DNA of 63,402 nucleotides, filler included, from Coriobacteriales bacterium (GTDB lineage Bacteria > Actinomycetota > Coriobacteriia > Coriobacteriales > UBA8131), in the NCBI GenBank assembly GCA_031263105.1. It is 7 parts of 7 records of this genome, joined end to end, with 100 filler letters (N's around TTAATTAATTAA, not from the genome) between each part and the next. Parts side by side here need not be neighbours in the genome. Positions count along the whole stretch, not along the records: positions 54,823 to 59,367 come from JAISGJ010000221.1; 6 more parts are not named here. One strand, given 5' to 3'. Under the pieces are notes generated by a model. The model was not told where the DNA came from, made no database searches, and was given only the letters and a program-made list of their open reading frames with translations. The translations under genes and the position numbers were made by a program. The number at the start of each line of letters is the position of its first letter. The first letter of the stretch is position 1. Shown one piece after another: positions 6,368 to 62,652 of the stretch.

Positions 6368-9300
6368 GGACGTCCGCCTGCCGTCCGCCGAGCGGGGTCA
6401 GGGGCCCCCGTATCTGGTCGCGGAGCTCGTCGCTTTCCGCCGCGAGCGCCCATTGCCTGAAATCCTCGAAAAGCGCGAGCTCCTCCCTGCCCTCAAGGTA
6501 CCTGCTGCTTGCAGAGAGCTCGACCCGCCTGTCGGCGACGAGGGCGACCGTGCGAGGTGCTTCGTCGTCGTCGAGGGATCCGAGGGGGTCGAGGGGGGCC
6601 TGTTCGAGCAACCCGAGCTCCTCGAGGATCGCGAGCGCGTTCAGGGCCCCTCTCCCGTCGAGGGGGCATTGGGGGTCCCTGTGGCGGCAGGCGTCGGCAA
6701 GGCCCTGCGCAGAGACGACGAGGGGGGCGCCCTTGCCGGGCGCGGCATCGTGCCCGGAGGCCAGGTCGCCCAATGCCCGGTACAGGGTCACCATCTCCTC
6801 GCGCCCGGGCGAGAGCGGGGCGAGCAGCCGCCTGTTCAGGTGCGCGTCGTCGTGCGTGTAGAGCAGATGGACCGTCGCGTCGGCACCGTCCCTGCCCGCA
6901 CGGCCCGACATCTGGTTGAAGGCGGCCGCACTGAACGGGAGGCTGTAGAGCACCACGTCGGAGATGTCGGGGATGTCTATGCCCTCGCCGAAGGCGCTCG
7001 TCGAGACGAGCACCCTCGCCTCGCCGGCCCGGAAGGCATCCTCCAGCGCCTTGCGCGCGGCCCGTCCGAGCCCTGCGTGGTAGAAGACGACCTCTTCGGC
7101 CCTGCGCGGGTCGCGCTTGCGCAGCAGCCGCGCCAGGACGACCGTCTGCATGCGCGAGTTCGCGTAGATCACCGCCTTGGCCGCCTTGGCCACGACCTCC
7201 GCCAGCAGGCGGTCGCGGTCGCAGCGGTTGCGAAGGTCGTTGACGTGCAGGTTCTCGCGACGGGTGTCGTCCACGATGACGCGTCCGATGCCGAGGGCGT
7301 CCTTGACGGCGGCGGCGGTGCGGGCATCGGAGGTCGCGGTGAGCGCAAGGCACTGCACCTGGGGGAAGTGCGCACGCAACGCGCCGAGGTCGCGGTAGGC
7401 CGGCCGGCCGGCGGTGCGCTCCGTCTGGATGTGGTGCGCCTCGTCGAACACGACGAGGCCGATGCGCGCGGAGGAGGCGAACCTCCAGGCATGGAGGCCG
7501 AGGAACTCGGGGGTCGTGAGCACGACGTCGATGCTGCCCTCGTACAGGCCCTGGAACAGCTCGTCCTTCTCGTCGGCCGTGTTCTCCCCGGTCACCGCGC
7601 AGGCCTTGACGCCCAGGCGGGAGAGGCGCCCGACGAGGTGGGCGGACTGGTCCGCTATCAGGGCGCGCAGGGGATAGACGAACACGCTTGCGGCCTTTTT
7701 GCTGCGCGCCAGGTAGGCGGCATGGGCCTGGAAGACGAGGGACTTCCCCCTGCCGGTCGCCATGACCACCAGGACGGACTCCCCCGCCCTCAGCGCCTCA
7801 AGGGCCTCGGCCTGTGCCGGATGCAGCCGGACGGGCCTTCCGGCCACCTGCGAGGCCAGTCCTTGGATGTCGTCGCCCTCGGGTGCAGGGCCGGGAGCGT
7901 CGTCTGCATCTCCTTCGTCCGCACCGGCCCCGTCGTCGGCATCCTCGCCGTCGCTGCCGCCCTCGGGTCCGCAGGCGGCGCCTCCGCCCTCCCCCTGCCC
8001 TTCGTCCGTCCCGTCTGCGCCTTCCCGGTCGTCCGCGTCGGGCGACTCGAAGACCTTCTCGACCATGAGCTTCACACGGGGGGTGCCGCCCCATTCGTCC
8101 ACCTGCGGGCGGTAGACGACGTCCACGGCCTTCCCGCAGGAGGCGAGCGAGAGGATGTGCTCGATGCACGGGCACCTGAACCAGATGGCGGAGACGGTGC
8201 AGGCATCGTCCATGACGGAGAAGGAGAGGTGGGCCTTGTCCGCCCCCACGGCACGGGCGTTCACGAGGAACACGCCGCAGCTCACGTACAGCGGCTCCCT
8301 GTTGGCATGGCCGTAGGGCCCGAGGAGGGCGAGCTGCCCCACCGCCTCCCGGTCGAGCTCGCAGAGGGCGAGCTGCGCGTCGAGGGGCAGGGGCGGATGG
8401 AAGCCCTCGTCGGGTTCTGCGGCCATGACGGCCTCCATGCGCTCCTTGAACGCGTCGAGCCGCTCCTGCGCGACCGTGACCCCGACGGCCCCTGCGTGCC
8501 CACCGAACCTCAGCGTCAGATCCCCGCAGCGCTCGACAGCCTTGAACAGGTTGACCGTCCCGATGCTCCTGCCCGAGCCGCGCGCCTGGCCGTCCGTGAG
8601 CGTGAAGACGATGACCGGGACACCGTAGCGCGCCACGAGGCGGGAGGCGACGATGCCGCGCACGCCCTCGTGCCAGCCCTCCCCTGCCACCACGAGCACC
8701 TTCTGGCCATGATAGCCGTCCGCAGCCTGGGCGAGGGCCTCGGCGAGCAGGGCGGCCTCGACCTTGCGCCGCTCGGTGTTCAGCGCATCGAGCGTGGCGG
8801 CGATGTCGGACGCCTGTGAGGCCTCGTCGCTCAGCAGCAGGTCGAGCGCGACCGTAGGGTCGCCCATCCTGCCCGCCGCGTTGAGCCGGGGGATCAGGCC
8901 GTAGCTGAGGTCGATTGTGCTGAGCTCAGTGCCCCGCCTCTTCGAAAGCGCCAGGGCTGCGGCCGCACCGGGACGCGGCGTGCGCCCGAGGAGCGTCAGG
9001 CCCTCTGCGACCAGGGAGCGGTTCTCGCCGGTCAGGGGCATGACGTCGGCCACCGTCCCGAGGGTCGCCAGGTCGACGAGGTCGCGCCAGAGCAAGGGCC
9101 GGCCGAAACGTGCGCCGAGCAGGGCCATGAGCTTCAATGCGACGCCGGCCCCTGCGAGGCCGGCGAAGGGCGAATAGGGATCCAGCTTGGGATCCGTGAG
9201 GGGGATGCCATGAGGGACGCTGCCCGAGGGCTCGTGGTGGTCGGTGACAAGGACCTCTATCCCGTGCGCGAGGAGCTGGGCGACCTCCTCGTGCGCCGAG

Positions 9301-9794
9301 ATGCCGCAGTCGACGGTGACCAGCGTCTCGGGGGCCCTCGCATATATCCGCTCCAAGGCGCCCGGCGTCAGGCCGTAGCCCTCGTCCATGCGGTGAGGGA
9401 TAAGGCAGCCCACGTCCGCCCCGAGGGCAGCAAGCCCCCTCGCCATGCAGGCGGTGGCGCTGATGCCGTCCACGTCGAAGTCGCCGAAGACCAGTATGCG
9501 CCGACGTGCGCGCACCGCCGCCTCCAGGGCGTCGGCGACCTCCGTCATGCCGGGGACGAGGGCGGGGTCGCCCCAGTCGCGGTCGAGGTCGGGGGCCAGG
9601 AAGCGCTGCGCATCGTCTGCGTCGACGATGCCACGGGCCACGAGCGTGCGGGCAAGGAGGGGCGCGATCCCACAGGCGTCCGCGACCGCCTGTACGGCGT
9701 CCGGGTCGGCGTCGCGTATGCTCCAACGTGGTCCCAAGAAGGCCCTCCTGCATCGGTGCCCTGTATCAAGGGCAGACAAACATATCGCCTCCAT
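6360..9794 (-). CDS. recJ: ssDNA exonuclease RecJ fused to a C-terminal RecQ-like DEAH helicase (start uncertain)
   Basis: GDFDVDG, TVDCG, TDHH, LNAAGR and GGHAGAVG (DHH/DHHA1); then TGRGKS, DEAH, LTAT, AFGEGID and QMSGRAGRDG. Confidence 0.93.
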   Translation of the reverse strand: MEAICLSALDTGHRCRRAFLGPRWSIRDADPDAVQAVADACGIAPLLARTLVARGIVDADDAQRFLAPDLDRDWGDPALVPGMTEVADALEAAVRARRRILVFGDFDVDGISATACMARGLAALGADVGCLIPHRMDEGYGLTPGALERIYARAPETLVTVDCGISAHEEVAQLLAHGIEVLVTDHHEPSGSVPHGIPLTDPKLDPYSPFAGLAGAGVALKLMALLGARFGRPLLWRDLVDLATLGTVADVMPLTGENRSLVAEGLTLLGRTPRPGAAAALALSKRRGTELSTIDLSYGLIPRLNAAGRMGDPTVALDLLLSDEASQASDIAATLDALNTERRKVEAALLAEALAQAADGYHGQKVLVVAGEGWHEGVRGIVASRLVARYGVPVIVFTLTDGQARGSGRSIGTVNLFKAVERCGDLTLRFGGHAGAVGVTVAQERLDAFKERMEAVMAAEPDEGFHPPLPLDAQLALCELDREAVGQLALLGPYGHANREPLYVSCGVFLVNARAVGADKAHLSFSVMDDACTVSAIWFRCPCIEHILSLASCGKAVDVVYRPQVDEWGGTPRVKLMVEKVFESPDADDREGADGTDEGQGEGGGAACGPEGGSDGEDADDGAGADEGDADDAPGPAPEGDDIQGLASQVAGRPVRLHPAQAEALEALRAGESVLVVMATGRGKSLVFQAHAAYLARSKKAASVFVYPLRALIADQSAHLVGRLSRLGVKACAVTGENTADEKDELFQGLYEGSIDVVLTTPEFLGLHAWRFASSARIGLVVFDEAHHIQTERTAGRPAYRDLGALRAHFPQVQCLALTATSDARTAAAVKDALGIGRVIVDDTRRENLHVNDLRNRCDRDRLLAEVVAKAAKAVIYANSRMQTVVLARLLRKRDPRRAEEVVFYHAGLGRAARKALEDAFRAGEARVLVSTSAFGEGIDIPDISDVVLYSLPFSAAAFNQMSGRAGRDGADATVHLLYTHDDAHLNRRLLAPLSPGREEMVTLYRALGDLASGHDAAPGKGAPLVVSAQGLADACRHRDPQCPLDGRGALNALAILEELGLLEQAPLDPLGSLDDDEAPRTVALVADRRVELSASSRYLEGREELALFEDFRQWALAAESDELRDQIRGPLTPLGGRQADVHG

Positions 9795-9849
9795 TCTGAC
9801 AGAAAACCGCGTTTTGCGCAGCAGCCGTCTCTTGCGGCGCGGGCGCCGG

Positions 9850-10176
9850 GTTGCGGTCCACACCCTCCATGAATACCCCCACTGTCACCCACACCCCCAC
9901 TGTCACCCACGCCCCCTCTGTCACCCACGCCCCCACTGTCACCCACGCCCCCACTGTCATTCCGAGCCTGTCGAGGAATCCTCGGCCGCGCAAGCGGCCG
10001 ACCGCAGGTCGAGGGACCCCCCGACCTACCGTTGGTCGCTTCGCTCTCCATGGGCCTGTCGGCCCGTCCTCGCTGAAAACGCGGTGCGTTTTCCGGGCGC
10101 TCGGACCCAAGGATTCCTCGGCGGGGCTCGGAATGACAGTGTGCGCTCGGAATGACAGTGGGGTGTGAACGGTAAC
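9850..10176. repeat. Family A element with an 18-bp sub-terminal tandem array
   Basis: GTTGC..CACACCC left end and GTGTGAACGGTAAC right end; flanks GGCGCCGG / GGTGCTGG (6/8, degenerate TSD). Confidence 0.85.
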
Positions 10177-10264
10177 GGTGCTGGCAATGCGATAGAATGG
10201 GACACGACAGGGCGCATTGGCAAAGGCGCCGGGTTTCGGCTCTTGGAGCACCGAAGGAGGCTGA

Positions 10265-11086
10265 GTGGCTCGCGGCGACCGCAGGCGGTCCAGACAGTGG
10301 CGTTTCTCGGACTCGCCGCGCCGCTTCGGCGCTCAGAGGAACTACCGTTCCATCACGGACCATCAGCCGATCTCGGACACCTTCGCGCGCAAGATACTCT
10401 ACTGCAGGCGCTGCGGGAACCGCGTCGTCAGCAATGTGAGCCATTGCCCCTTCTGCGGCAAGAGCCTGCTGCCCTTCTTCAAGCGCCTCTGGTTCTGGCT
10501 CCTGGTCGTCGTCCTGAGCGCCGCCGCGACCGTCGCCCTGCTGTTCCTCAGCCCGACTGCAGAAGACGTCGCGCCCCCGCAGGAGACGCCGCTCCCTGTG
10601 GTGATAGGCGCACCGCCCACGACGCCCGCAAAGGACCTCGCCGTGGGCACGACGGTCGACTGCAACAACCTGCTCGTCACCGTCACCGGCGTCACGCACG
10701 ACCTTGTCGCCTCCGACGGCTCCCCCATCACCACCGTCGAGATACAGTTCCTCAACAAGGGCGCCGAGACGGTGGCCCTGTACTCGACGCAATGGCAGCT
10801 CGAGACGACGGGAGGGGACCGGCACGACCGCTATATCGGCAAGACGTCGGAGGGCGCCAACGTCAGCGGCGGCCTCGACTCCCAAGAGCTGGAGAAGGAC
10901 GGCACCCTCACCGTGAGCCTCTCCTTCGCGGCCGAAGGCCCCCTCCTGGCAGTGTACGCCCCCGACGCCCTCTCCTATACCGAGGCGGCGCTGGTCACCT
11001 GGTCGGTCTCACCGTCGGTCGCCCAGGACCCCCGGGCATCCGAGGGCTCCCAGGCCTCCGAGACGCCCCAAGGGGACGTCGGCTGA
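10265..11086 (+). CDS. Zinc-ribbon, single-TM membrane protein with an extracytoplasmic beta-rich (DUF4352-like) domain
   Basis: AAGGAGG RBS before GTG; CRRC...CPFC; TM segment LWFWLLVVVLSAAATVALLF. Confidence 0.75.
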   Translation: MARGDRRRSRQWRFSDSPRRFGAQRNYRSITDHQPISDTFARKILYCRRCGNRVVSNVSHCPFCGKSLLPFFKRLWFWLLVVVLSAAATVALLFLSPTAEDVAPPQETPLPVVIGAPPTTPAKDLAVGTTVDCNNLLVTVTGVTHDLVASDGSPITTVEIQFLNKGAETVALYSTQWQLETTGGDRHDRYIGKTSEGANVSGGLDSQELEKDGTLTVSLSFAAEGPLLAVYAPDALSYTEAALVTWSVSPSVAQDPRASEGSQASETPQGDVG

Positions 11087-11163
11087 AGCGGCTTCCGGGG
11101 CAGTGCCGAACAAGTGCCTGTGCGTCGGATGCAGGGCGTTCTCCCCGTCATCCTCCCTCCCGG

Positions 11164-12123
11164 TCAGTCCCCTAGCTGCTCCGCCACGGTGAACTCGTCG
11201 AGGCCTTCGCCGTACTTCGTCGCAAGTTTCCTGAACTTGGGCTCGCGCTGCTTCCAGAGGGCGTAGAGCGGCGACGCGATGGCGATGGAGGAGTACGAGC
11301 CGAGTATGAGCCCGATGGACATGGCGAAGGCGAAGTCCTTCAAGGTCTCCCCGCCGAAGAACAACATGGCAAGGACGGGGATCATTGTGGAGAGGGTCGT
11401 GTTGATGGTGCGCATGAGCACCTGGTTGACCGAGTGGTTCGCGACCGTCATGAACGAGTGGCGCGAGGTCGTCGAGAGGTTGTCGTTGATGCGATGGAAC
11501 ACGACGACGGTGTCGTAGAGCGAGTAGCCCATGATGGTGAGCAGGGCTGCCACGACGTTCGGGGTGACCTCCCGGCCGACGATCGCATAGACGCCGACTA
11601 TGATGAGGAGGTCGTGGACCAAGGTGGTGACCGCGACGACCCCCATCTTGTACTCGAACCGGATGGCGATGTAGATGATGATGAGCGCCAAGGCGACGAG
11701 GAACGCGATGAGCGAGGTGCGCGTGACCTCCGCACCCCAGCCCGGCCCGACGGTCATGGCCTCGGCGGTCGTGCTGTCGATGCCCAACGCGGCACTGACC
11801 GCGTCCTTGTAGGTGGAGGCCTCCTGGGCGTCCGTCGTGGATATGCCGACGATGAAGCCCGCCTCCCCCGTGCGCACGTCGGTGGAGGTCTGGACGATGG
11901 CGCCCTGCACCCCTGCGTCCTCGAAGGCCGTGCGCATCTCGTCGATGCTGATCTCGCCGGTGTTCTTGAAGTCGATGGACGAGCCGCCCACGAACTCGAT
12001 GCCGAAGTTGAGGCCCTTTACCGGCAGGGCGACGAGGGCCGCGACCATGAGGACGATCGAGATGATGAAGAACACCCTGCGGTGACGGAGGAAGTCGACG
12101 TCCTTCTTGAACGGCCTAACCAT
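11164..12123 (-). CDS. secF: Protein translocase subunit SecF
   Basis: GLNFGIEFVGG, GYSLYDTVVVFHRI, RTINTTLST. Confidence 0.96.
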   Translation of the reverse strand: MVRPFKKDVDFLRHRRVFFIISIVLMVAALVALPVKGLNFGIEFVGGSSIDFKNTGEISIDEMRTAFEDAGVQGAIVQTSTDVRTGEAGFIVGISTTDAQEASTYKDAVSAALGIDSTTAEAMTVGPGWGAEVTRTSLIAFLVALALIIIYIAIRFEYKMGVVAVTTLVHDLLIIVGVYAIVGREVTPNVVAALLTIMGYSLYDTVVVFHRINDNLSTTSRHSFMTVANHSVNQVLMRTINTTLSTMIPVLAMLFFGGETLKDFAFAMSIGLILGSYSSIAIASPLYALWKQREPKFRKLATKYGEGLDEFTVAEQLGD

Positions 12124-14103: not shown

Positions 14104-14265
14104 GTTACACGTCACACCCCACTGTCATTCCGAGCCTGTCGAGGAATCCACGGCCGCGCCAGCGGTCGACCGCAGGTCGAAGGGTCCCCTGACCTGCCGT
14201 TGGACACTGCGTGTCCAAGGATTCCTCGGCGGGACTCGGAATGACAGTGGGGTGTGACGTGTAAC
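14104..14265. mobile_element. Complete family A MITE (162 bp) with perfect 8-bp TSD GGCGAAAC
   Basis: 31-bp TIR GTTACACGTCACACCCCACTGTCATTCCGAG; GGCGAAAC at 14096-14103 and 14266-14273. Confidence 0.9.
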
Positions 14266-14326
14266 GGCGAAACTGCGGCTCGCAGCCGATTCATGCTGCA
14301 ACTGGACAACGGACGAGGAGAATGCC

Positions 14327-22240: not shown

Positions 22241-22277
22241 CGAATTCCGGTGGAATGGTGATTGACTCGGCGCTTCC

Positions 22278-28973: not shown

Positions 28974-29244
28974 CCCGAGCACCCACTGTCATCCCGAGCC
29001 TGCCGAAGGATCCTTGGGTCCGAGCGCCCGGAAAACGCACCGCGTTTTCAGCGAGGACGGGCCGGAAGGCCCACGGAACCCGAGCGCCCGGAAAACGCAC
29101 CGCGTTTTCAGCGAGGACGGGCCGACAGGCCCACGGGACGCGGAGCAGCCGACTGCGGGTCGAGGCGCCCTCTGGCCGCAGTCGACCGCTGGCGCGGTCG
29201 AGGATCCCTCGGCAGGCTCGGGATGACAGTGGGGGTGTGAACAC
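28974..29244. repeat. Family A element with a duplicated GAAAACGC module (contig start)
   Basis: Two 60-bp-period copies of CCGAGCGCCCGGAAAACGCACCGCGTTTTCAGCGAGGACGGGCCG. Confidence 0.88.
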
Positions 29245-30205: not shown

Positions 30206-30363
30206 GTTACTGGCCACACCCCCACTGTCATCCCGAGCCTGCCGAGGGATCTTCGACCGCGCAAGCGGTCGACTGCGGCTGAAAGGCGCTTCAACCTGCG
30301 GTCGGCTGCCTTGCAGCCGAGGATCCCGCGGCAGGCTCGGGATGACAGTGGGGGTGTCAGTAA
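30206..30363. mobile_element. Family A MITE
   Basis: GTTACTGGCCACACCCCCACTGTCAT...ATGACAGTGGGGGTGTCAGTAA. Confidence 0.88.
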
Positions 30364-30469
30364 TGAACTGCCCCGCAGCAAGCTGCGGGGTATCTCGTAG
30401 GACAAAGGGCATTGCACCGCCCACGGCGGTGTTTGCGCCCCAAGGGGCGGGGTATGTAGCCATGCAAGA
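30364..30469 (-). mobile_element. Miniature IS200/IS605-like element (PATE-like)
   Basis: Hairpins CCCCGCAGC-AA-GCTGCGGGG and GCCCC-AA-GGGGC; on the minus strand it follows TTGAT and ends in TTCA. Confidence 0.5.
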
Positions 30470-31771: not shown

Positions 31772-31821
31772 GGAAGGGGATTAATCGGCGCTTCTGGCGC
31801 CCATCGGTCTAAGGAGAGCAT

Positions 31822-38047: not shown

Positions 38048-38839
38048 TCATGCGGAAACGGGCTTCCACGAGATGAACGCCCAGCGGATCGGGATGCTCT
38101 CGGAGCCGAGCTCGGGGTCCGCGGTGCCGGGCCGTGTGGTGTCGATATAGCGCAGCTCGGGGTTGGCGCCCATCTGCCAAAGGATGCCCATGACGTAGAG
38201 GTAGTCGGGAAGGTAGCACGCAAGGCCCTCGGCCGCAGAGCCCAGGGCCTTGTAGCCGCGTGGGCTGTACTCGGTCGCCACCGTGACGGCGACCTTGTGA
38301 CGGGCGACCGCGTCCAGCTTCATCAGTGCGTCCCACAGGTCCTCGACCATGATGGAGCGCGAGGCGACGGCGACATCGGCGCTCTTCGGCGCGAGGCCTG
38401 CGCCCTGCCAGTCGTCTGTCCAGCTCAACGGCAGCACGTTGAGGCCGCCTATGCCCGCGCTCCGGGCACGCTCGGCAAGGGCCGTGCGCATGCCCTCGGA
38501 AAAGTCGGCCGCCGTCACCGGATGCCCCGCCTCTGCCAAAGGGAGCGCCAGCGTCCCCGTGCCGCAGCCCATGTCGAGGACGCTTTGGCCGGGCGCAAGG
38601 TCGAGCATGGCCAAGAAGGCATCCGCATACTCCGAGCGTCCGCTGTGCCTCCTGAACTCACGGGCCCTGTCGTCCCAATAGGCACAGGCATCCGGCTTGC
38701 GGCGGCGCCTGCTGCGCTCCACCCATGCTGCACGCCAATCCGTGCCTTCAAGGTGTTCCAGGACTATTCCGGCCACAACGACTCCTTTGCCTGATACGGA
38801 AGTGCCGATCACCTCACGCCACACCGCCTGGCGCAACAA
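38048..38839 (-). CDS. Class I SAM-dependent methyltransferase (start uncertain)
   Basis: VLDMGCGTG, AADFSEGM, DVAVASRS. Confidence 0.88.
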   Translation of the reverse strand: MLRQAVWREVIGTSVSGKGVVVAGIVLEHLEGTDWRAAWVERSRRRRKPDACAYWDDRAREFRRHSGRSEYADAFLAMLDLAPGQSVLDMGCGTGTLALPLAEAGHPVTAADFSEGMRTALAERARSAGIGGLNVLPLSWTDDWQGAGLAPKSADVAVASRSIMVEDLWDALMKLDAVARHKVAVTVATEYSPRGYKALGSAAEGLACYLPDYLYVMGILWQMGANPELRYIDTTRPGTADPELGSESIPIRWAFISWKPVSA

Positions 38840-38941
38840 CAGGTAATCGGCACTTCCCTAACTTTCTCAGACGGGATTATAGAGTTTTAAGTAGAAGCGC
38901 ACAAGAAGAGGTCCGCCCAACGGCGAGCGTGACGATGCGCC

Positions 38942-45307: not shown

Positions 45308-45319
45308 GCGGGGCGTCCC

Positions 45320-45675
45320 GCAGTCGGCCGCTTGCGCGGCCGAGGATCCCTCGGCAGGCTCGGGATGACAGTGGGAGCTCGGGATGGCAGTGGAGGCTCG
45401 GGATGGCAGTGGAGGCTCGGGATGGCAGTGGAGGCTCGGGATGGCAGTGGAGGCTCGGGATGGCAGTGGAGGCTCGGGATGGCAGTGGGTGTGAACCAAC
45501 GAAGGCATGCGGCGCTTGGCGCACGGGACGGCTGTGATGTGTGAACCAACGAAGGCATGCGTTACAGTTCACGCCCCACGGATACCCCACTGTCATTCCG
45601 AGCCTGCCGAGAGATCTTCGACCGCGCCAGCGGTCGACCGCTGGTCGAAGGGCCCTGCGACCTGCCGTTGGACAC
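45320..45675. repeat. Cluster of family A parts with a 7x19-bp tandem array
   Basis: GCTCGGGATGGCAGTGGAG-type unit x7 (45358-45490); new left end GTTACAGTTCAC at 45561. Confidence 0.88.
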
Positions 45676-52238: not shown

Positions 52239-52269
52239 GCCATACTCCTTTCGGCAGGTGCTTTGCAAG

Positions 52270-52711
52270 GTTACCGCTCACACCCCACTGTCATCCCGAG
52301 CCCCACTGTCATCCCGAGCCCCACTGTCATCCCGAGCCCCACTGTCATCCCGAGCCCCACTGTCATTCCGAGCCCCACTGTCATTCCGAGTCCCACTGTC
52401 ATTCCGAGCCCCACTGTCATTCCGAGCCTGTCGAGGAATCCTCGGGTCCGAGCGCCCGGAAAACGCACCGCGTTCTCAGCGAGGACGGCGCGACAGTCCG
52501 GCGGACTGGGAAACAGCCCAGTGGGCTGTTTCCGGGCGAAGCTGCGAAGCAGCGTATGAGCCCCTGAGCGGGTGATCCCATGGAACCGACAGGCCCACGG
52601 GACGCGAAGCAGCCGACCGGGCCAGTTGGACGCTGCGCGTCCAAAGATTCTCACGCTGCGCGCCCTTTCGGGCGCTTCGCTCAGAATGACAGTGAGAGTG
52701 TGAACAGCAAC
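52270..52711. mobile_element. Large composite family A element with an 8x18-bp array
   Basis: CCCCACTGTCATYCCGAG x8 (52283-52426), several hairpin modules, GTGTGAACAGCAAC end. Confidence 0.88.
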
Positions 52712-54150: not shown

Positions 54151-54722
54151 ATTATTGTTCACACCCCCACTGTCATCCCGACCCCCACTGTCAGATTCCG
54201 AGCCCCCACTGCCGCCCCGGCCCCCCGCTGCCGCCCCGGCCCCCGCTGCCGCCCCGGCCCCCGCTGCCGCCCCGGCCCCCGCTGCCGCCCCGGCCCCCGC
54301 TGCCGCCCCGGCCCCCCACTGTCATCCCGCGCCTGCCGAGGGATCCTCGACCGCGCAAGCGGTCGACTGCGGCCAGAGGGCACCTCGACCTGCGGTCGGC
54401 TGCTCCGCGTCCCGTGGGCCTGTCGGTTCCATGGGCTCACCCGCTCAGGGGCTCATACGCTCAGGGGCTCACCCGCTCAGGGGCTCACCCGCTCAGGGGC
54501 TCACCCGCTCAGGGGCTCACCCGCTTAGGGGCTCACCCGCTGCTTCGCAGCTTCGCCCGGAAACAGCGCACCGCGCTGTTTCCCAGTCCGCCGGACTGTC
54601 GCGCCGTCCTCGCTGAAAACGCGGTGCGTTTTCCGGGCGCTCGGGTCCCGTGGGCCTGTCGGCCCGTCCTCGCTGAAAACGCGGTGCGTTTTCCGGGCGC
54701 TCGGACCCAAGGATTCCTCGGC
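54151..54722. repeat. Large composite family A element (contig end)
   Basis: GC-shifted 18-bp array (54203-54311), 7x16-bp GGGCTCACCCGCTCAG array (54433-54543), duplicated GAAAACGC module. Confidence 0.88.
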
Positions 54723-54845
54723 NNNNNNNNNNNNNNNNNNNNNNNNNNNNNNNNNNNNNNNNNNNNTTAATTAATTAANNNNNNNNNNNNNNNNNNNNNN
54801 NNNNNNNNNNNNNNNNNNNNNNCACAGGGGGCGGGGCACCCGTGT

Positions 54846-55065: not shown

Positions 55066-55290
55066 GTGAGCACAACCATCACACTGCGGCTTGAAGAGGC
55101 GGAGAAGGGCCTGATTGCCGAGTACGCCAAGATGCACGGCATCGGCATCTCCGAGGCGCTGCGTGAGGCCATGTGGGAGAAGATTGAGGACGAGATCGAC
55201 TTGAAGGCGGCCGAGGAAGCCTATGCGGAGTACAGGAGGAACCCGACCACCTATTCCCTTGAGGAAGTCAACGCGATGTGGGACGCCTGA
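55066..55290 (+). CDS. RelB-like (DUF6290-type) antitoxin
   Basis: TITLRL...EKIEDEIDL...TYSLEEV. Confidence 0.85.
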   Translation: MSTTITLRLEEAEKGLIAEYAKMHGIGISEALREAMWEKIEDEIDLKAAEEAYAEYRRNPTTYSLEEVNAMWDA

Positions 55291-55568
55291 TGGGCTTCGA
55301 TGTCGTAGTCTCCGAAAAGGCCGCCAAACAGATAAAGGAGCTCGGCCGCAGGCAAGGTGAACTGCTGATAGCTTGGTTGATGAAGAACATCCGTGGCACT
55401 GAAGACCCCAGAAGCCGCGGCAAGGCCCTGGTTGGGAACATGAGGGGCCTTTGGCGCTATCGGGTGGGGGACTACCGGATTGTCTGTGACATACAAGACG
55501 ACAAACTCGTAGTCTTGGTCTTGTCTGCAGGACATCGCGGCGAGATCTATGGTGTCAGGGGTCAGTGA
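55290..55568 (+). CDS. RelE/ParE family toxin
   Basis: DPRSRGKALVG...LWRYRVGDYRI...GHRGEIY. Confidence 0.92.
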   Translation: MGFDVVVSEKAAKQIKELGRRQGELLIAWLMKNIRGTEDPRSRGKALVGNMRGLWRYRVGDYRIVCDIQDDKLVVLVLSAGHRGEIYGVRGQ

Positions 55569-55699: not shown

Positions 55700-56143
55700 C
55701 GCGGGCTTTTCGATACGTGATGGGCTACGCGTAGTTTCGATTCTCTTCTAGCATCGCGTGTTCTCTTTCAAGAAAATTGCTCAGTGGGCATTCCTCGATG
55801 TCGAAAAGGACGCTGCCCTTGCACGCATGATTGAACATGTGGGTAAGGTAGCCGCTAAAGACGACGTCTGTCAGTTCGACAATGGTTACTGTTCACACCC
55901 CACTGTCATTCCGAGCCCCGCCGAGGAATCTTTGGACACGCAGTGTCCAACGGCAGGTCGGGGGCCCTTCGGCCTGCGGTCGGTCGCTTGCGCGGTCGAG
56001 GATCCCTCGGCAGGCTCGGGATGACAGTGGGGTGTGAACAGTAACCGACAATGCTTCTGGGAATAGCGGGTTTTCAGCATGAGTCGTTCATGTTCAAACT
56101 CTACGTGGTAGGATAGAATCTCGTTGTCATGCACCTGCGACAT
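55700..56143 (-). pseudogene. Small hypothetical-protein pseudogene interrupted by a family A MITE (3' boundary approximate)
   Basis: MSQVHDNEILSY... continues after the MITE as IVELTDVVFSGYLTHMF...SVLFDIEE in a shifted frame, with an internal TAG. Confidence 0.55.
55885..56045. mobile_element. Complete family A MITE (161 bp) with perfect 8-bp TSD CGACAATG
   Basis: TIR GTTACTGTTCACACCCCACTGTCAT; CGACAATG at 55877-55884 and 56046-56053. Confidence 0.92.
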
Positions 56144-56156
56144 AGGGCTACCTTCC

Positions 56157-56372
56157 TCAACCAGCATTCAAGGGCGTGACGTTTAGTTTCTCCCGATACC
56201 GCGCCTCTTCGATCCGAAGCTCGCCTGTTGTGGCGCGGTAGAGCCTGTGCTCGGCGTAGAGCCCGCCCTCAAGCTCGTCTCGCTCCGTTGCCCGCAGATT
56301 CTCGGGGACGCGCACAGACTCAAAGGACTTGCGGCGCTTTTGGTATTCTGCTGTATAGGCGATGTTCGTCAT
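56157..56372 (-). CDS. Small hypothetical protein or fragment
   Basis: 71-codon ORF with AAGG RBS, co-oriented with the adjacent pseudogene. Confidence 0.35.
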   Translation of the reverse strand: MTNIAYTAEYQKRRKSFESVRVPENLRATERDELEGGLYAEHRLYRATTGELRIEEARYREKLNVTPLNAG

Positions 56373-56699
56373 ACCTTTAGCTTCCGAGGAGTGCGGCTGG
56401 GACTACGGCGATCCCGTCTGATCTGCGGTATGCGATCGAGCCGGTCGTGAGCACCACGGCATCGGTGAGCTTTCTGCCATATCCACATGGTAGGCCACTA
56501 CGAGCAAAAGTCAACGATTCCTAGACTTTTGGATTAACAATCCCAACATTTGAAAGTCAACAATCCCAACAAACAGGAGGAGGCAGGCGTGAGATGGTGC
56601 GCAATGAATCAATCGGCGCTTCCCTGATATGTAGACGCTCTTGTCAAGAGGCAATAATGGGGCAACCCCAAGATTTCTTCGAGGGGCTGCCCCTGCCAT

Positions 56700-56900
56700 T
56701 TGTACCACGGCCGGAAGCCTTGATGGCGTGTCTGACTCGACGCACATTCGCAAGTCTGATATCCGCGTGTTGGTTAACGCAATTCCGATGCTTCGGCTGG
56801 GGAGTCTGCCTGTCTAGGGACGCGCATGGCCAAAGACTGCTCGACCGCGCATAGGGAAGCCGCAGATTGCCCCACGCGACACCGTGTCAGCTGCCGGCCG
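56700..56900 (-). ncRNA. Candidate bridge/seek RNA in the IS110 downstream end (boundaries approximate)
   Basis: Stem-loop carrying GCTTCCCTA and TCCCTAG (match the target) and, further 3', ATATCAGAC (matches the circle junction). Confidence 0.6.
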
Positions 56901-56929
56901 GGGGTACAGCATGTTATGTCGGCCTGTCG

Positions 56930-58003
56930 TCAGGCCATGTTCGCCAAAGCCCAGACGAATCCCGCAGCCTCGCGCGCGACAGCGGCGTTGGCCTTGCACG
57001 GGCTCATCTTCCTTGACGCAAGATGAGCCGCCCGATCACGCAGCCGCAGGTTGGCCTTCTTCGCCGCCTGGGCGACCTTTGGCGGGGTGCCGTCGGGAGG
57101 CGCCTGGGCGGAGGGAAGGTACCTGCGGCGGTGGTGCCAGGCGGACTCGACGAGCAGCTTGCGCACGTGGCTGTTGCCGGTCTTGGTGATGGGGCCCCGC
57201 GAGGACGACTCGCCGCTCTCGCTGAGCGAGGGGGCGAGCCCCAGAAACGAGCAGGACGCGCCGGCGTTCCTGAACCTCGAGAAGTCGCCTGTCTCGGCGG
57301 CGACCGAGAACGCCGTGGTGGTCGAGACGCCGCGCAGCAGGCTCAGCCGGGAGACCGGGCCGCGCCATCTCTCCGTCGCTGCCAGCTCGCCTATCGCTGT
57401 GCCCGGGCGCCCCCTCTTGCGCTCTGCCTCCTCCACCGACACCAGGTACTCCGACAGCACCAGCCGCTCCGTCGGCGAGGGAAGCTCCAGGTGCCCCGGC
57501 CAGCGCCTGTGCGCCCTGGCCCGGGCCTTCTTGCCGCCCTCGTAGACTATGCCCTTCCTGAGCAGGAGCTTCGACAGCAGGTGCTTGGCGCGGGTGAGGT
57601 CCTGGCGCACGTCCTCGCGGGCACGGGCCAGGTCGCGGGCGGCCTCGTCGGCCTCGCCCGGCACGTACACCTCGACTATGTTGCCGACAGAGAGCATCCT
57701 GGCCAGAAAGACCGCGTCGCGCTCGTCGTTTTTTATCCTGTCGCCGCAGGGCCTGGGCATCTTGGTGACGGCGCCGACGACGCAGCAGACGCCGGCACTT
57801 TCCAACCTGCGCAAAAGGTCGAACCCGGTCGGGCCGGACTCGTAGGCGCATCTGACCGGCTGGGGAAGCGACTTCACCCATCCGGCGGCGGCGGGGTCGT
57901 AGGCGAAAGACCCTTGGACGATCCCCCCGGTTTCGTGGATCAGAGCCGCAGACTTGATGGAACGCGCATGTACGTCGGGCCCGACACTGGTAGAATAATA
58001 CAT
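56930..58003 (-). CDS. IS110 family recombinase (ORF intact but drifted)
   Basis: G.DVH, YESGPTG, KND..DA (DEDD); GL.PS...SG; ITKTGN..VRKLLVESAW; AVARE. Confidence 0.92.
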   Translation of the reverse strand: MYYSTSVGPDVHARSIKSAALIHETGGIVQGSFAYDPAAAGWVKSLPQPVRCAYESGPTGFDLLRRLESAGVCCVVGAVTKMPRPCGDRIKNDERDAVFLARMLSVGNIVEVYVPGEADEAARDLARAREDVRQDLTRAKHLLSKLLLRKGIVYEGGKKARARAHRRWPGHLELPSPTERLVLSEYLVSVEEAERKRGRPGTAIGELAATERWRGPVSRLSLLRGVSTTTAFSVAAETGDFSRFRNAGASCSFLGLAPSLSESGESSSRGPITKTGNSHVRKLLVESAWHHRRRYLPSAQAPPDGTPPKVAQAAKKANLRLRDRAAHLASRKMSPCKANAAVAREAAGFVWALANMA

Positions 58004-58121
58004 GTTGAGGCCTCCTATTGACTTGTGGTACGACTGTACCGGTTGTTAATTGCAGAACCGATTATGCCGTAATCCACGGATACTCATAGAGGAGGCCTCA
58101 GTTCCTCTACATATTGTCTAG

Positions 58122-59230
58122 GGAAGCACCGATTAATTGACATTTCCGCCGCTTTTCACCGTCTTAGGCAGCCCGCATGGCGGGCTGCCCTGTTTTGGCT
58201 TCACATCACTTGCAACACACAACCCAGGCGGCTGCCCCGTACACCTCCTGCACTCCTGTTTCTGCCCCTTTGCCCTCCCAAACTGCTCAGGAGGACACGC
58301 TTCTCCTTGTCACGCGCTGCCAAAGAGCGCTGAGCCGCCTGTCCTTCTGTTGGACTGAGCCAGCAGGTAGATGCCTGCCGACATCACCGCCCAGACCAAG
58401 CGCTCGGTGTTTTTGGCAAGCCCCCTGCAGGGTGTCTTTCTCAGCCCGAACAGGTCCTTGACGACATGGAACACGTGCTCGACCTTGCACCTTGTCGATG
58501 ACTTGCGGTTCTCCGTCGCCTTGTCTCCGTCGTTTCTCACCTTGCTTTTCATCTCGTTTATCCGGTAGTCGATGGATCTTAGGTGCTCGTCGTCTTTGAC
58601 CTCGGCGCGATTCCTGATGCCGCGGTAGCCCGCGTCGCCATAGACCACCTCGTCGTCGTCTCGGATGAGCCTGTGTGCCTCGTCCAGGTCATGCACGTTG
58701 GCAGAAGTCGTGGTGAGCGTGTGCGGGAGCCCGGTTCCTGCGTCGACGCCGATATGCAGCTTCATGCCGTGGTGCCATGTCCTGCCCTTCCTGGCCCGGT
58801 GCATCTCGGGGTCGCGCTTTCCTGATCTGTTTTTCGTGCTGCAGGTGGACTCGATGAAGGTGGCGCCCGCTATGGTGCCGCCCTTATACATCACGCCGCC
58901 GTCCTGGAGCAGTCTGGTAAGCGAGGAGAACAGGAGCTCGCCTATCCTGTCGGCCTCCATCATATGGCGGAAGTTGGCCAGCGTGGTGGCGTCCGGCACC
59001 TGTTCGTTAGCTCCCAGCTTCAAAAACGCGTGCATGGCATACGAGTCCATGCAGGCCTCTTCGCAACCGACATCAGACAAGGTGAACCAGACCTGCATTT
59101 TTGGGGGTCTGTAAGACGAGTGTCCAGAGTTGTGAGTCGGCAGGGATACCAAGCATGGGCGATGCGACCCGCCGAGGCGGGCCGCATGACACGATTTAAG
59201 GGGTGGTGACTGGATTAAATCGGTGGTTCC
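58122..59230 (-). mobile_element. Defective IS5-family element flanked by CTAG duplications
   Basis: Ends GGAAGCACCGATTAA / TAAATCGGTGGTTCC; CTAG at 58118-58121 and 59231-59234. Confidence 0.8.
58310..59100 (-). pseudogene. IS5 transposase, N-terminally truncated, first catalytic Asp replaced
   Basis: VPDATTL..FR, TIAGAT (for TIVDAT), RDPEM, GMKLHIGVD, ANVHD, YGDAGY, R.KVEHVF. Confidence 0.85.
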
Positions 59231-59269
59231 CTAGGGAGACGCTGATTGATCATTGCACGCCGCCTTCCG

Positions 59270-59367
59270 GCTACTGTTCACACCCCCACTGCCAGGGAGG
59301 CGATGGTCAATCATTGCACGCCGCCTTCCGGCTACTGTTCACACCCCCACTGTCATCCTGAGCGAAG
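59270..59367. repeat. Duplicated family A left ends (contig end)
   Basis: GCTACTGTTCACACCCCCACTG twice, inside a ~61-bp direct duplication. Confidence 0.75.
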
Positions 59368-59698
59368 NNNNNNNNNNNNNNNNNNNNNNNNNNNNNNNNN
59401 NNNNNNNNNNNTTAATTAATTAANNNNNNNNNNNNNNNNNNNNNNNNNNNNNNNNNNNNNNNNNNNNGGCGCCGCGACGGACGACATGGCCGTATCTCGT
59501 TCCCATGGTGTTGCTCCCTACGCCCGCTTATGACCCTTTTTACTGCATTCACTGCACCCGCATGCTGGCCGCAAGGCGGCCCAGTCCTGTTCAGAATACC
59601 ACGTTATCCTGCCCCCCGCAACGGCAGATTGCCCGCCCTGCCCGCCCTGCCCTGCACGCCCGCCCTGCCCCGCCATTCACCCGGATAGGCGACCGATG

Positions 59699-62404: not shown

Positions 62405-62652
62405 GTTGTCGCTCACACCCCCACTGTCATTCCGAGCCTGCCGAGGAATCCTCGACTGCGGAGCAGTCGACCGCAGGTCGAAGCGCCTTCCGGCCACAGT
62501 CGACCGCTTGCGCGGTCGAAGATCCCTCGGCAAGCTCGGGATGACAGTGGGGGCCGGGGCGGCAGCGGGGCCGGGGCGGCAGCGGGGCCGGGGCGGCAGC
62601 GAGGGCCGGGCGGCAGCGGGGGCCGGGCGGCAGCGGGGGTGTGAGCGGTAAC
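62405..62652. mobile_element. Complete family A MITE with perfect 8-bp TSD GTAGCAGC
   Basis: GTAGCAGC at 62397-62404 and 62653-62660; GC-shifted 18-bp array near the right end. Confidence 0.9.

Follow-up and report, generated by a model that had tools for sequence, protein, structure and literature searches.

How does an insertion sequence (IS) come to lie exactly within the short target duplication of another one, and can the reason be read in its own non-coding DNA? This question is raised by a locus on record JAISGJ010000221.1 of a Coriobacteriales bacterium (assembly GCA_031263105.1), within the window analysed here, a stretch of 63,402 nucleotides made up of parts of seven records of that genome. 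The locus holds a nested pair of insertion sequences on the minus strand: an IS5-type element, then an IS110-family element in its CTAG, and then a solo repeat. We consider it probable that the inner element is an RNA-guided element of the IS1111 type, whose guide is programmed to CTAG followed by GGAAGC at its own site. The evidence which carries this reading is a covariation between one side of a conserved RNA loop and the right flank of the insertion, observed over 42 natural insertions of related elements.

Two nested insertion sequences and the site between them

The features of the locus are listed in the order in which the minus strand is read.

59235..59258, minus strand: second arm resembling an IS5 repeat, beyond the far end of the IS5-type element
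59231..59234, minus strand: CTAG, far-side target duplication of the IS5-type element
58122..59230, minus strand: IS5-family element of 1109 bp, with an open reading frame (ORF) at 59152..58310 (280 amino acids as called)
58118..58121, minus strand: CTAG, near-side target duplication of the IS5-type element, whose AG (58119-58118) is the left core copy of the IS110 element
56624..58119, minus strand: whole IS110-family element of IS1111-type layout, 1496 bp including the AG core at both ends, as read from the junctions
58004..58119, minus strand: short left non-coding end of the IS110 element, 116 nt, with the core AG at 58119-58118
58114-58106, minus strand: left subterminal inverted repeat ATATGTAGA, pairing with 56635-56627
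56930..58003, minus strand: uninterrupted transposase ORF of 357 amino acids, DEDD type by Pfam and NCBIfam
56624..56929, minus strand: long right non-coding end, ~305 nt (306 nt counting the core), which encodes the candidate bridge/seekRNA
56635-56627, minus strand: right subterminal inverted repeat TCUACAUAU, followed by C and the core AG at 56625-56624 (feature span 56624..56635)
56600..56623, minus strand: solo IS5-like terminal repeat, beginning GGAAGCGCCGATT, which abuts the right end of the IS110 element and has no transposase behind it

The element at 58119..56624, which a preliminary description of this DNA had assigned to the IS110 family, is an intact IS110-family insertion sequence of the IS1111 type. 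Its transposase ORF matches DEDD_Tnp_IS110 in Pfam (PF01548; E 1.5e-07, 31.8 bits, cut-off 29) and, in the C-terminal part, Transposase_20 (PF02371; E 1.8e-18), as well as the NCBIfam model NF033542, 'IS110 family RNA-guided transposase' (172.2 bits, cut-off 140, profile positions 2-338 of 343). A PDB sequence search with the transposase gave no match at E <= 0.01. The translation contains GLAPSLSESG, which fits G-L-x-P-x4-S/T-G, described as a C-terminal-domain motif of IS1111-family transposases (PMC11187229). The IS1111 group is further described as having the longer non-coding region downstream of the transposase gene (PMC11187229, PMC11208160), and here ~305 nt downstream of the ORF compare with 116 nt upstream. 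Subterminal inverted repeats of the group are given as 7-17 bp (PMC11208160) or as usually 11-13 bp (PMC11187229); the perfect 9-bp repeat of this element lies inside the former range and below the latter. The terminal extensions beyond these repeats, given for the group as 7 (or 6) bp on the left and 3 bp on the right, measure 5 bp (AGACA) and 3 bp (CAG) here, with the core counted on both sides. They would become 7 and 3 only if the flanking CT were assigned to the IS110 element, and the IS5 duplication argues against that assignment.

The boundaries can be read from the junctions of the minus strand, which are ...GCTTCCCT-AG-ACAATATG on the left and ...CATATC-AG-GGAAGCGCC on the right. An AG core is present at both junctions with no longer target duplication, as is also the case in relatives, which share the end motifs AGAC..TATG and CATATCAG. 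Excising the element together with one AG copy restores CTAG on both sides of the IS5-type neighbour. Because the near-side CTAG exists only after exact removal at AG, the boundaries and the AG core are independently verified. The strings and coordinates that the preliminary description gave for this site are all present in the sequence.

The neighbour at 58122..59230 is a member of the IS5 family, with a DDE transposase, terminal repeats and a 4-bp duplication. Elements of this family generate a 4-bp target duplication of the YTAR type. The ORF matches DDE_Tnp_1 and DUF772 in Pfam and NF033581 in NCBIfam (207.4 bits, cut-off 140), and the terminal repeats start GGAACCACCGATT on the left, far side and GGAAGCACCGATT on the right, near side, read inward. 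CTAG stands on both sides of an 82%-identical IS5 relative (L219) in another Coriobacteriales genome; the flanks of IS5 relatives are CTAG, TTAG, TTAA or CTAA, the last three being those of the more distant ones. At the far side of the IS5-type element at this locus, the site reads TCC-CTAG-GGAACC, an empty near-target in which 11 bases match the IS110 site before C replaces G. The arm beyond it (59235..59258), read outward from CTAG, is identical to the solo repeat (56623-56600) at 19 of 24 positions, and the site was therefore a repeat-CTAG-repeat palindrome before either insertion.

Repeats of this kind recur in the surroundings. The DNA past the far end of the IS5-type element (59235-59340, minus strand) is a tandem duplication with a unit of ~62 nt that ends in the IS5-repeat-like arm; of the two copies, the one nearest the element forms the palindrome with the solo repeat at 56623-56600. 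Elsewhere in the window, a 60-bp element at 38798-38857 (minus strand) is built from a pair of IS5-like terminal repeats in facing orientation, GGAAGTGCCGATTACC ... GGTGATCGGCACTTCC. It is bordered on one side by TTAG and looks like a repeat-only miniature derivative of the IS5-type element. Other solo IS5-repeat-like sites lie at 22277, after CTAA, and at 31795.

A candidate guide RNA and the flank it follows

The long right end would encode a bridge/seekRNA, with an internal loop between two conserved stems as its target-binding part. The parts of this candidate RNA and of the sequences that follow it are these.

56799..56873, minus strand: target-binding domain of about 75 nt, its structure counted on 44 relatives
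56873-56870 with ~56802-56799, minus strand: stem P1, GGGG pairing with CCCC
56865-56862 with 56809-56806, minus strand: stem P2, CUGC pairing with GCAG, followed by the internal loop
56852..56860, minus strand: guide 1, the 5' loop side, GCUUCC plus CUA, complementary to top-strand T-AG-GGAAGC
56851-56847 with 56825-56821, minus strand: hairpin P3
56811..56820, minus strand: guide 2, the 3' loop side, UCC plus CUAG plus ACA, in which UCCCUAG equals the top-strand left flank and core
56781-56777 with 56768-56764, minus strand: hairpin P5
56754..56762, minus strand: AUAUCAGAC, equal to the right end, the core and the first two left-end bases (the predicted circle junction), in the multiloop after P5
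56659..56693, minus strand: terminator-like G+C-rich hairpin after the RNA, from its fold, followed by AUUAUUG (about 56693-56653 with this U-rich tail); also present in close relatives
56642..56647, minus strand: outward TTGACA, a candidate -35 box 16 nt before the AG core

For comparison, 94 related loci were fetched, 48 from species genomes and 46 from metagenomes. The closest relatives (59-68% protein identity) are on Coriobacteriia-like contigs, while most are ~45% identical and from Actinomycetota. Nearly all relatives with ends have CT/AGAC..TATG at the left junction and CATATCAG/ at the right one, the slash marking the boundary; every reconstructed empty target therefore contains CTAG. 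Their right ends also have a common architecture, composed of P1, P2, the internal loop, P3, the small invariant hairpin P5, AUAUCAG(A/U)C and two more short stems. In the loop, the 5' side is made of 6-7 variable bases and an invariant CUA, and the 3' side of three variable bases followed by CUAG and AC. Counted over 44 sequences, 89.4% of the stem cells are paired, compared with 24-53% when the partners are slid, and compensatory changes on both sides occur in 15 of the 30 pairs of the structure; each of these levels was reached in none of 500 shuffles. It should be noted that the structure was drawn by hand from the same 44 sequences used for counting, which favours it somewhat. The preliminary description had proposed a stem/internal-loop/stem from TCTGC (56866-56862) and GCAGA (56809-56805), with GCTTCCCTA (56860-56852) and TCCCTAG (56820-56814) on the two sides of the loop. 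This arrangement stands, its stems being kept with compensatory changes across relatives. An Rfam search gave no family match, only a sub-threshold chance match to a microRNA. The presence of a bridge/seekRNA-like target loop in the right end is a supported conclusion. In one metagenome locus (L054, about 2530-2672), the segment comprising the 3' arm of the hairpin and guide 2 is tandemly duplicated within the target loop (...GCCTTCGGGCCATGCGCGATCCTAG twice).

The variable bases of guide 1 follow the right flank of the insertion. The guide/flank set comprised 45 rows, of which 3 duplicates were dropped, leaving 42 distinct pairs. Over these, the reverse complement of guide 1 matches the first six right-flank bases at 176 of 252 positions, compared with 82.7 +/- 7.2 matches (maximum 111) when the flanks are shuffled among elements; none of 20,000 shuffles reached 176. 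The match rate, position by position outward from the core, is 0.76, 0.90, 0.90, 0.76, 0.50 and 0.36. The same signal emerges from an unbiased scan, in which each well-filled RNA column (at most 30% gaps, so that gappier ones such as hairpin loops were left out) was compared, by identity and by complementarity, with 12 bases on each side of 37 insertions that have both flanks. The five columns that score highest (z 3.4-7.2) all belong to guide 1 and are matched, by complementarity and in antiparallel order, with +1 to +5; everything else has z <= 3.3. The covariation between loop and target that the preliminary description had suggested looking for among homologous insertion sites is accordingly found, on the 5' side and with the right flank. 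On the other side of the core, CUAG in the guide is paired with CT in the flank in 36 of the 42 rows, and 3 of 5 rows with other combinations follow the flank at -2. These are TTAG with TT twice (L069 and L070, one element with one left flank and hence one event) and GTAG with GT once; L234 is a further possible TT case. As judged from these natural insertions, the target in the subfamily appears to be set by T-AG plus 4-6 right-flank bases. In the element studied here, guide 1 spans the final base of the duplication, the core and the adjoining 6 bp of right flank. It matches its own right flank at all six positions, one of only 4 perfect cases among the 42, and the site therefore looks cognate rather than off-target.

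A few individual loci deserve mention. L005, L064 and L036 carry one and the same guide 1; L005 and L064 share 14 right-flank bases and differ in the left flank, and the right flank of L036 is different, a pattern that may point to recombination between copies or to a target that is itself repeated. Two metagenome loci, L052 and L053, have identical right ends, guides and right-flank starts. L053 lacks the CT/AGAC left junction and reads ...CTC GCAGAATATG instead, which suggests that its left end was rearranged or recombined. On its right flank, one Collinsella copy (L033/L237) adjoins a perfect palindrome with a 20-bp stem (GACGGGGCCCAGTGTCATGC...). The right flank of L007 consists of TTAG repeated many times over, perhaps a satellite, perhaps an assembly spacer. 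An apparent covariation between the 3' tail of guide 2 (ACA/ACG) and left-end base 5, seen in the first two sequences, failed in the rest.

Under the mechanism proposed here, GCUUCC-CUA on the 5' loop side would base-pair with the top strand of T-AG-GGAAGC. UCC-CUAG on the 3' side, which mimics the top-strand left flank and core, could pair with the bottom strand, and the recombinase would exchange strands at the AG core. The programmed site would then be CTAG followed by GGAAGC, with the preceding TCC as a possible, weakly supported extra. Such a string would be made wherever an IS5-type element duplicates CTAG and its repeat begins GGAAGC, and the IS110 element lies precisely within the CTAG that separates the IS5-type element from the solo IS5-like repeat. 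By analogy with ISEc11, ISPa11, ISKpn4 and IS621, the RNA is presumably made, binds the transposase and directs insertion.

The same analogy extends to the donor side. At 56762-56754 the minus strand of the right end reads ATATCAGAC, the string in which the preliminary description had recognised the predicted circle junction; it is present and equals the right end, the core and the start of the left end. The feature listed above as AUAUCAGAC is conserved together with the invariant CATATCAG end, and would read the circle junction. The outward TTGACA occurs at an equal distance in 37 of 39 distinct relatives, with TTGACG in the other two, and joining of the ends would place it 17 nt from GACAAT. 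A promoter scan of the linear element found no sigma-70-type promoter, and for ISEc11 a promoter formed by joining of the ends has been reported; here, the conserved TTGACA would likewise become a junction promoter only in the circle. A simple terminator scan of the minus strand did not pick up the G+C-rich hairpin near 56693. Among the metagenome contigs, an odd joint from 58139 to 56592, with 10 other letters between, was set aside as looking like another repeat-bearing sequence and not an excision product.

What the guide is aimed at

Various observations, gathered in this and the following paragraphs, count against the reading set out above. Taken alone, the 9-nt match between the right end and the site is weak: an exact match of at least 9 nt to the 32-bp empty site appeared in 232 of 5,000 mononucleotide shuffles of the 304-nt non-coding end, either strand being counted. 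The caveat of the preliminary description that the matches are short and the target quasi-palindromic was hence justified. The three variable guide-2 bases match the left flank at 32 of 114 positions (24.2 +/- 3.6 expected; reached by 456 of 20,000 shuffles), with rates of 0.21, 0.18 and 0.45 at -5, -4 and -3. Outside these bases, none of the RNA columns follows the left flank, and the 3/3 match of UCC at this site could be luck. In a donor-side covariation scan both partners are nearly invariant, and the residual variation follows phylogeny. Further, the metagenome contigs over the locus contain no empty-site or circle joint, and the public sequencing runs containing the element comprise one DNA run, with no RNA run listed. 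The shuffle result, the lack of an Rfam family and the lack of a listed RNA run would all suit the view that the matches arose by chance and that the non-coding end has no guide function. Against the conserved, compensated structure and the guide/flank covariation over 42 insertions, in a protein family published as RNA-guided (PMC11187229, PMC11208160), this view is barely credible. Scarcely better placed is the pairing originally suggested, in which the left flank and first core base are reproduced on the 5' side, and the core and right flank appear on the 3' side as their reverse complement. At the element's own site both strings fit, as does the corrected assignment, because the site is a palindrome. 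Over 38 distinct relatives, however, the 5' side agrees with the left flank at 53 of 228 positions against 52.5 expected, and 9,839 of 20,000 shuffles are as good, whereas their complementarity to the right flank stands out at z ~13. The 3' side is mostly invariant CUAG, which is the same as the top-strand left flank and core. Some small likelihood attaches to a target consisting of abutted repeats around CTAG, such as an IS5 circle junction, a tandem dimer or a palindromic repeat, with a repeat needed on both sides. Both loop sides do match here, over 9 nt and 7 nt, and the site was already a double-repeat palindrome before the IS5-type element arrived. However, the left flank beyond CT is hardly read in the family, and the single far end of the IS5-type element has the same TCC-CTAG-GGAA without a second repeat inside.

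If the guide is read as programmed to CTAG and GGAAGC, the question becomes whether IS5-type ends are its usual destination. The programmed string equals the IS5-type target duplication plus the start of the IS5-type repeat, exactly. CTAG is scarce, the 63.4-kb window containing it 17 times, and CTAGGGAA[GC]C occurs once in three related genomes (7.7 Mb), against 27 times for the reversed control. In a related 2.0-Mb Coriobacteriales genome, which carries the 82%-identical IS5 relative, the seven occurrences of CTAGGGAA[GC]C include five IS5 terminal repeats and a further site that is repeat-like. As CTAG is avoided but present at IS5-type ends, the guide should find most of its sites there, with the right end of the element always toward the repeat. 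From the target string alone, it is plausible, though unproven, that IS5 ends are the usual landing pad. In one tentative scenario, a large subfamily of IS1111-type elements in Actinomycetota and Coriobacteriia, anchored on CTAG through a near-invariant CT and the AG core and with only a right-flank guide of 4-6 nt being reprogrammed, would be predisposed to IS5 ends, CTAG being strongly avoided in these genomes and yet made by IS5 duplication, and the present lineage would have tuned its guide to the IS5 repeat. If this were true, every IS5 transposition would create a fresh, harmless landing pad, and the element would be an RNA-programmed transposon of transposons.

Weighing on the other side, only one insertion is known: in a termite gut metagenome, the only run containing the element and probably the source sample, its depth is 21.7 compared with 21.7-24.6 for the flanks. 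Terminal repeats of IS5 relatives usually open with GGAACC, which mismatches the guide at +5, and the IS5-type element itself presents such a near-target, with no insertion in it, at its far end (59234). Two of the three exact CTAGGGAAGC strings in four related genomes are not IS5 ends, and among the other relatives examined none lies at a transposon end that could be recognised as such. In 185,579 species genomes, a 20-nt scan for the right end joined to an IS5 repeat gave 5 matches, none of them real. A 15-nt guide scan of species genomes, its pattern being too short, returned at least 119 stretches; a motif screen and the reading of three among the matches listed revealed no family element. 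In the genomes bearing IS5 relatives and in related ones, a transposase search produced no second IS110/IS5 pair, and G001, the genome with the 82%-identical IS5 relative, had no match to this query. The idea of the preliminary description that the element is programmed against IS5-type ends thus holds in part: the target loop does match the CTAG junction at IS5-type repeats, but habitual parasitism does not follow from one single-copy insertion. It is possible, though we would not put it higher than that, that the match of guide and target is real and the IS5 link incidental, the 10-bp string having been found once beside an IS5-type repeat with no habit or selection. The single copy, the unrelated targets of other family members with no transposon ends evident, the CTAGGGAAGC strings outside IS5 ends, the typical GGAACC start and the absence of a second such junction from the species-genome scan all speak for this. 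Its weak points are the strong avoidance of CTAG and of the target string, the five to six of seven sites supplied by IS5-type ends in the one genome that carries them, and the tolerance of the guide at +5. Because that position is matched in only half of the natural insertions, GGAACC ends should also be usable.

The surroundings of the pair contain several further features. One family of short interspersed and tandem repeats, built on ...CCCCACTGTCATCCCGAGC..., occupies the window's intergenic DNA (37 direct-repeat families, 172 inverted pairs). It is found at 55822-56065 and, for example, at 9859-10185, 14104-14272, 29002-29239, 30214-30375, 45309-45507, 52265-52505, 54160-54722 and 62412-62574. 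Over 55822-56065, the depths of the contigs sum to 8,000-12,000, compared with ~22 for neighbouring DNA in the termite gut metagenome, and the repeat must therefore be extremely abundant in that community. Runs of N flank TTAATTAATTAA at 59367-59467, and a second N run lies around 54767-54830 (528 N in the window); they look like spacers between joined contigs, so that adjacency across them is not real. On the plus strand, 55066-55568 encodes a two-gene toxin-antitoxin pair, in which a DUF6290 protein (74 amino acids) overlaps a ParE-type toxin (96 amino acids). Downstream of the solo repeat, at 56373-56560 (minus strand), three GGGATTGTTGAC-like words occur within ~60 nt, ahead of a 71-amino-acid ORF (56372..56157) that has no Pfam match. 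These words could be an operator or an iteron-like array.

Comparison with known RNA-guided elements

The locus offers a clean natural case in which an IS1111-type guide RNA can be read directly against its own insertion site, with boundaries that were independently checked. The loop bases that set the target are defined from 42 natural insertions, which is useful for annotation and for the choice of programmable recombinases. If the IS5 link proved habitual, the element would be a Gram-positive, RNA-explained addition to the few insertion sequences that use the ends of other transposons as safe havens.

Such precedents exist. Partridge and Hall are said to have described in 2003 that IS4321 and IS5075 target the terminal repeats of Tn21-family transposons, and IS1383 reportedly targets the inverted repeats of IS1384 (Muller and colleagues, 2001). 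Like the element studied here, these are IS1111-group elements that target the terminal repeat of another element; unlike it, they are reportedly recorded in Proteobacteria hosts, with other targets and many insertions, whereas a single insertion is known here. Because the IS110 site spans the target duplication and the first six repeat bases of the IS5-type element, the latter stays uninterrupted. IS110-family elements in repetitive extragenic palindromic (REP) sequences were reportedly noted by Tobes and Pareja in 2006. ISPpu9, ISPpu10 and ISPa11 resemble the present element in landing in short repeated palindromes, and differ from it in that their targets are host REP elements and not a transposon end (PMC12288879).

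The closest mechanistic parallels are the IS1111-family seekRNAs of ISEc11, ISPa11, ISKpn4 and ISPst6, which are 82-96 nt long (Siddiquee et al. 2024, PMC11187229). These elements share with ours the non-coding region downstream of the transposase gene, the subterminal inverted repeats and the G-L-x-P-x4-S-G motif. The RNA domain is short in both (~75 nt here), with two overlapping segments that match the two target strands. The top-strand-complementary segment lies 5' of the bottom-strand one (PMC11187229), as guide 1 precedes guide 2 here, and the end-joining promoter of ISEc11 has a counterpart in the conserved outward TTGACA, which is a candidate only. In contrast, the subterminal repeat is 9 bp rather than 11-13 bp, the extensions are 5 and 3 bp with the core rather than 7 and 3 bp, visible target variation is confined to the right-flank guide of the subfamily, and the present case is known from sequence alone. 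IS621 offers a further comparison. The core of IS621 is CT, whereas here it is AG preceded by a near-invariant CT. The IS621 bridge RNA (Durrant et al. 2024, PMC11208160; Hiraizumi et al. 2024, PMC11208158) is similar in that a DEDD recombinase works with a structured RNA whose internal loop reads both target strands around a 2-bp core and whose second part matches the donor junction (PMC11208160). In IS621 the RNA is part of the left end, and each of its two target guides can be programmed freely, unlike the RNA proposed here, which lies in the right end and has its donor-matching bases in a multiloop. The latter arrangement is described for many IS1111-group members (Durrant et al., PMC11208160).

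In the literature searched, no IS110-family element of Coriobacteriia or Actinomycetota is described as targeting an IS5-type end; the figures, Extended Data and supplements of PMC11208160 and PMC11187229 may already model the RNA of this subfamily. Collectively, the mechanism is that of the published bridge/seekRNA elements and is not new, and the targeting of another transposon's repeat is also known. Three things set this locus apart: its host group, a CTAG-anchored subfamily in which one guide alone is clearly programmable, and a site that spans the duplication and the start of the repeat while leaving the targeted element uninterrupted.

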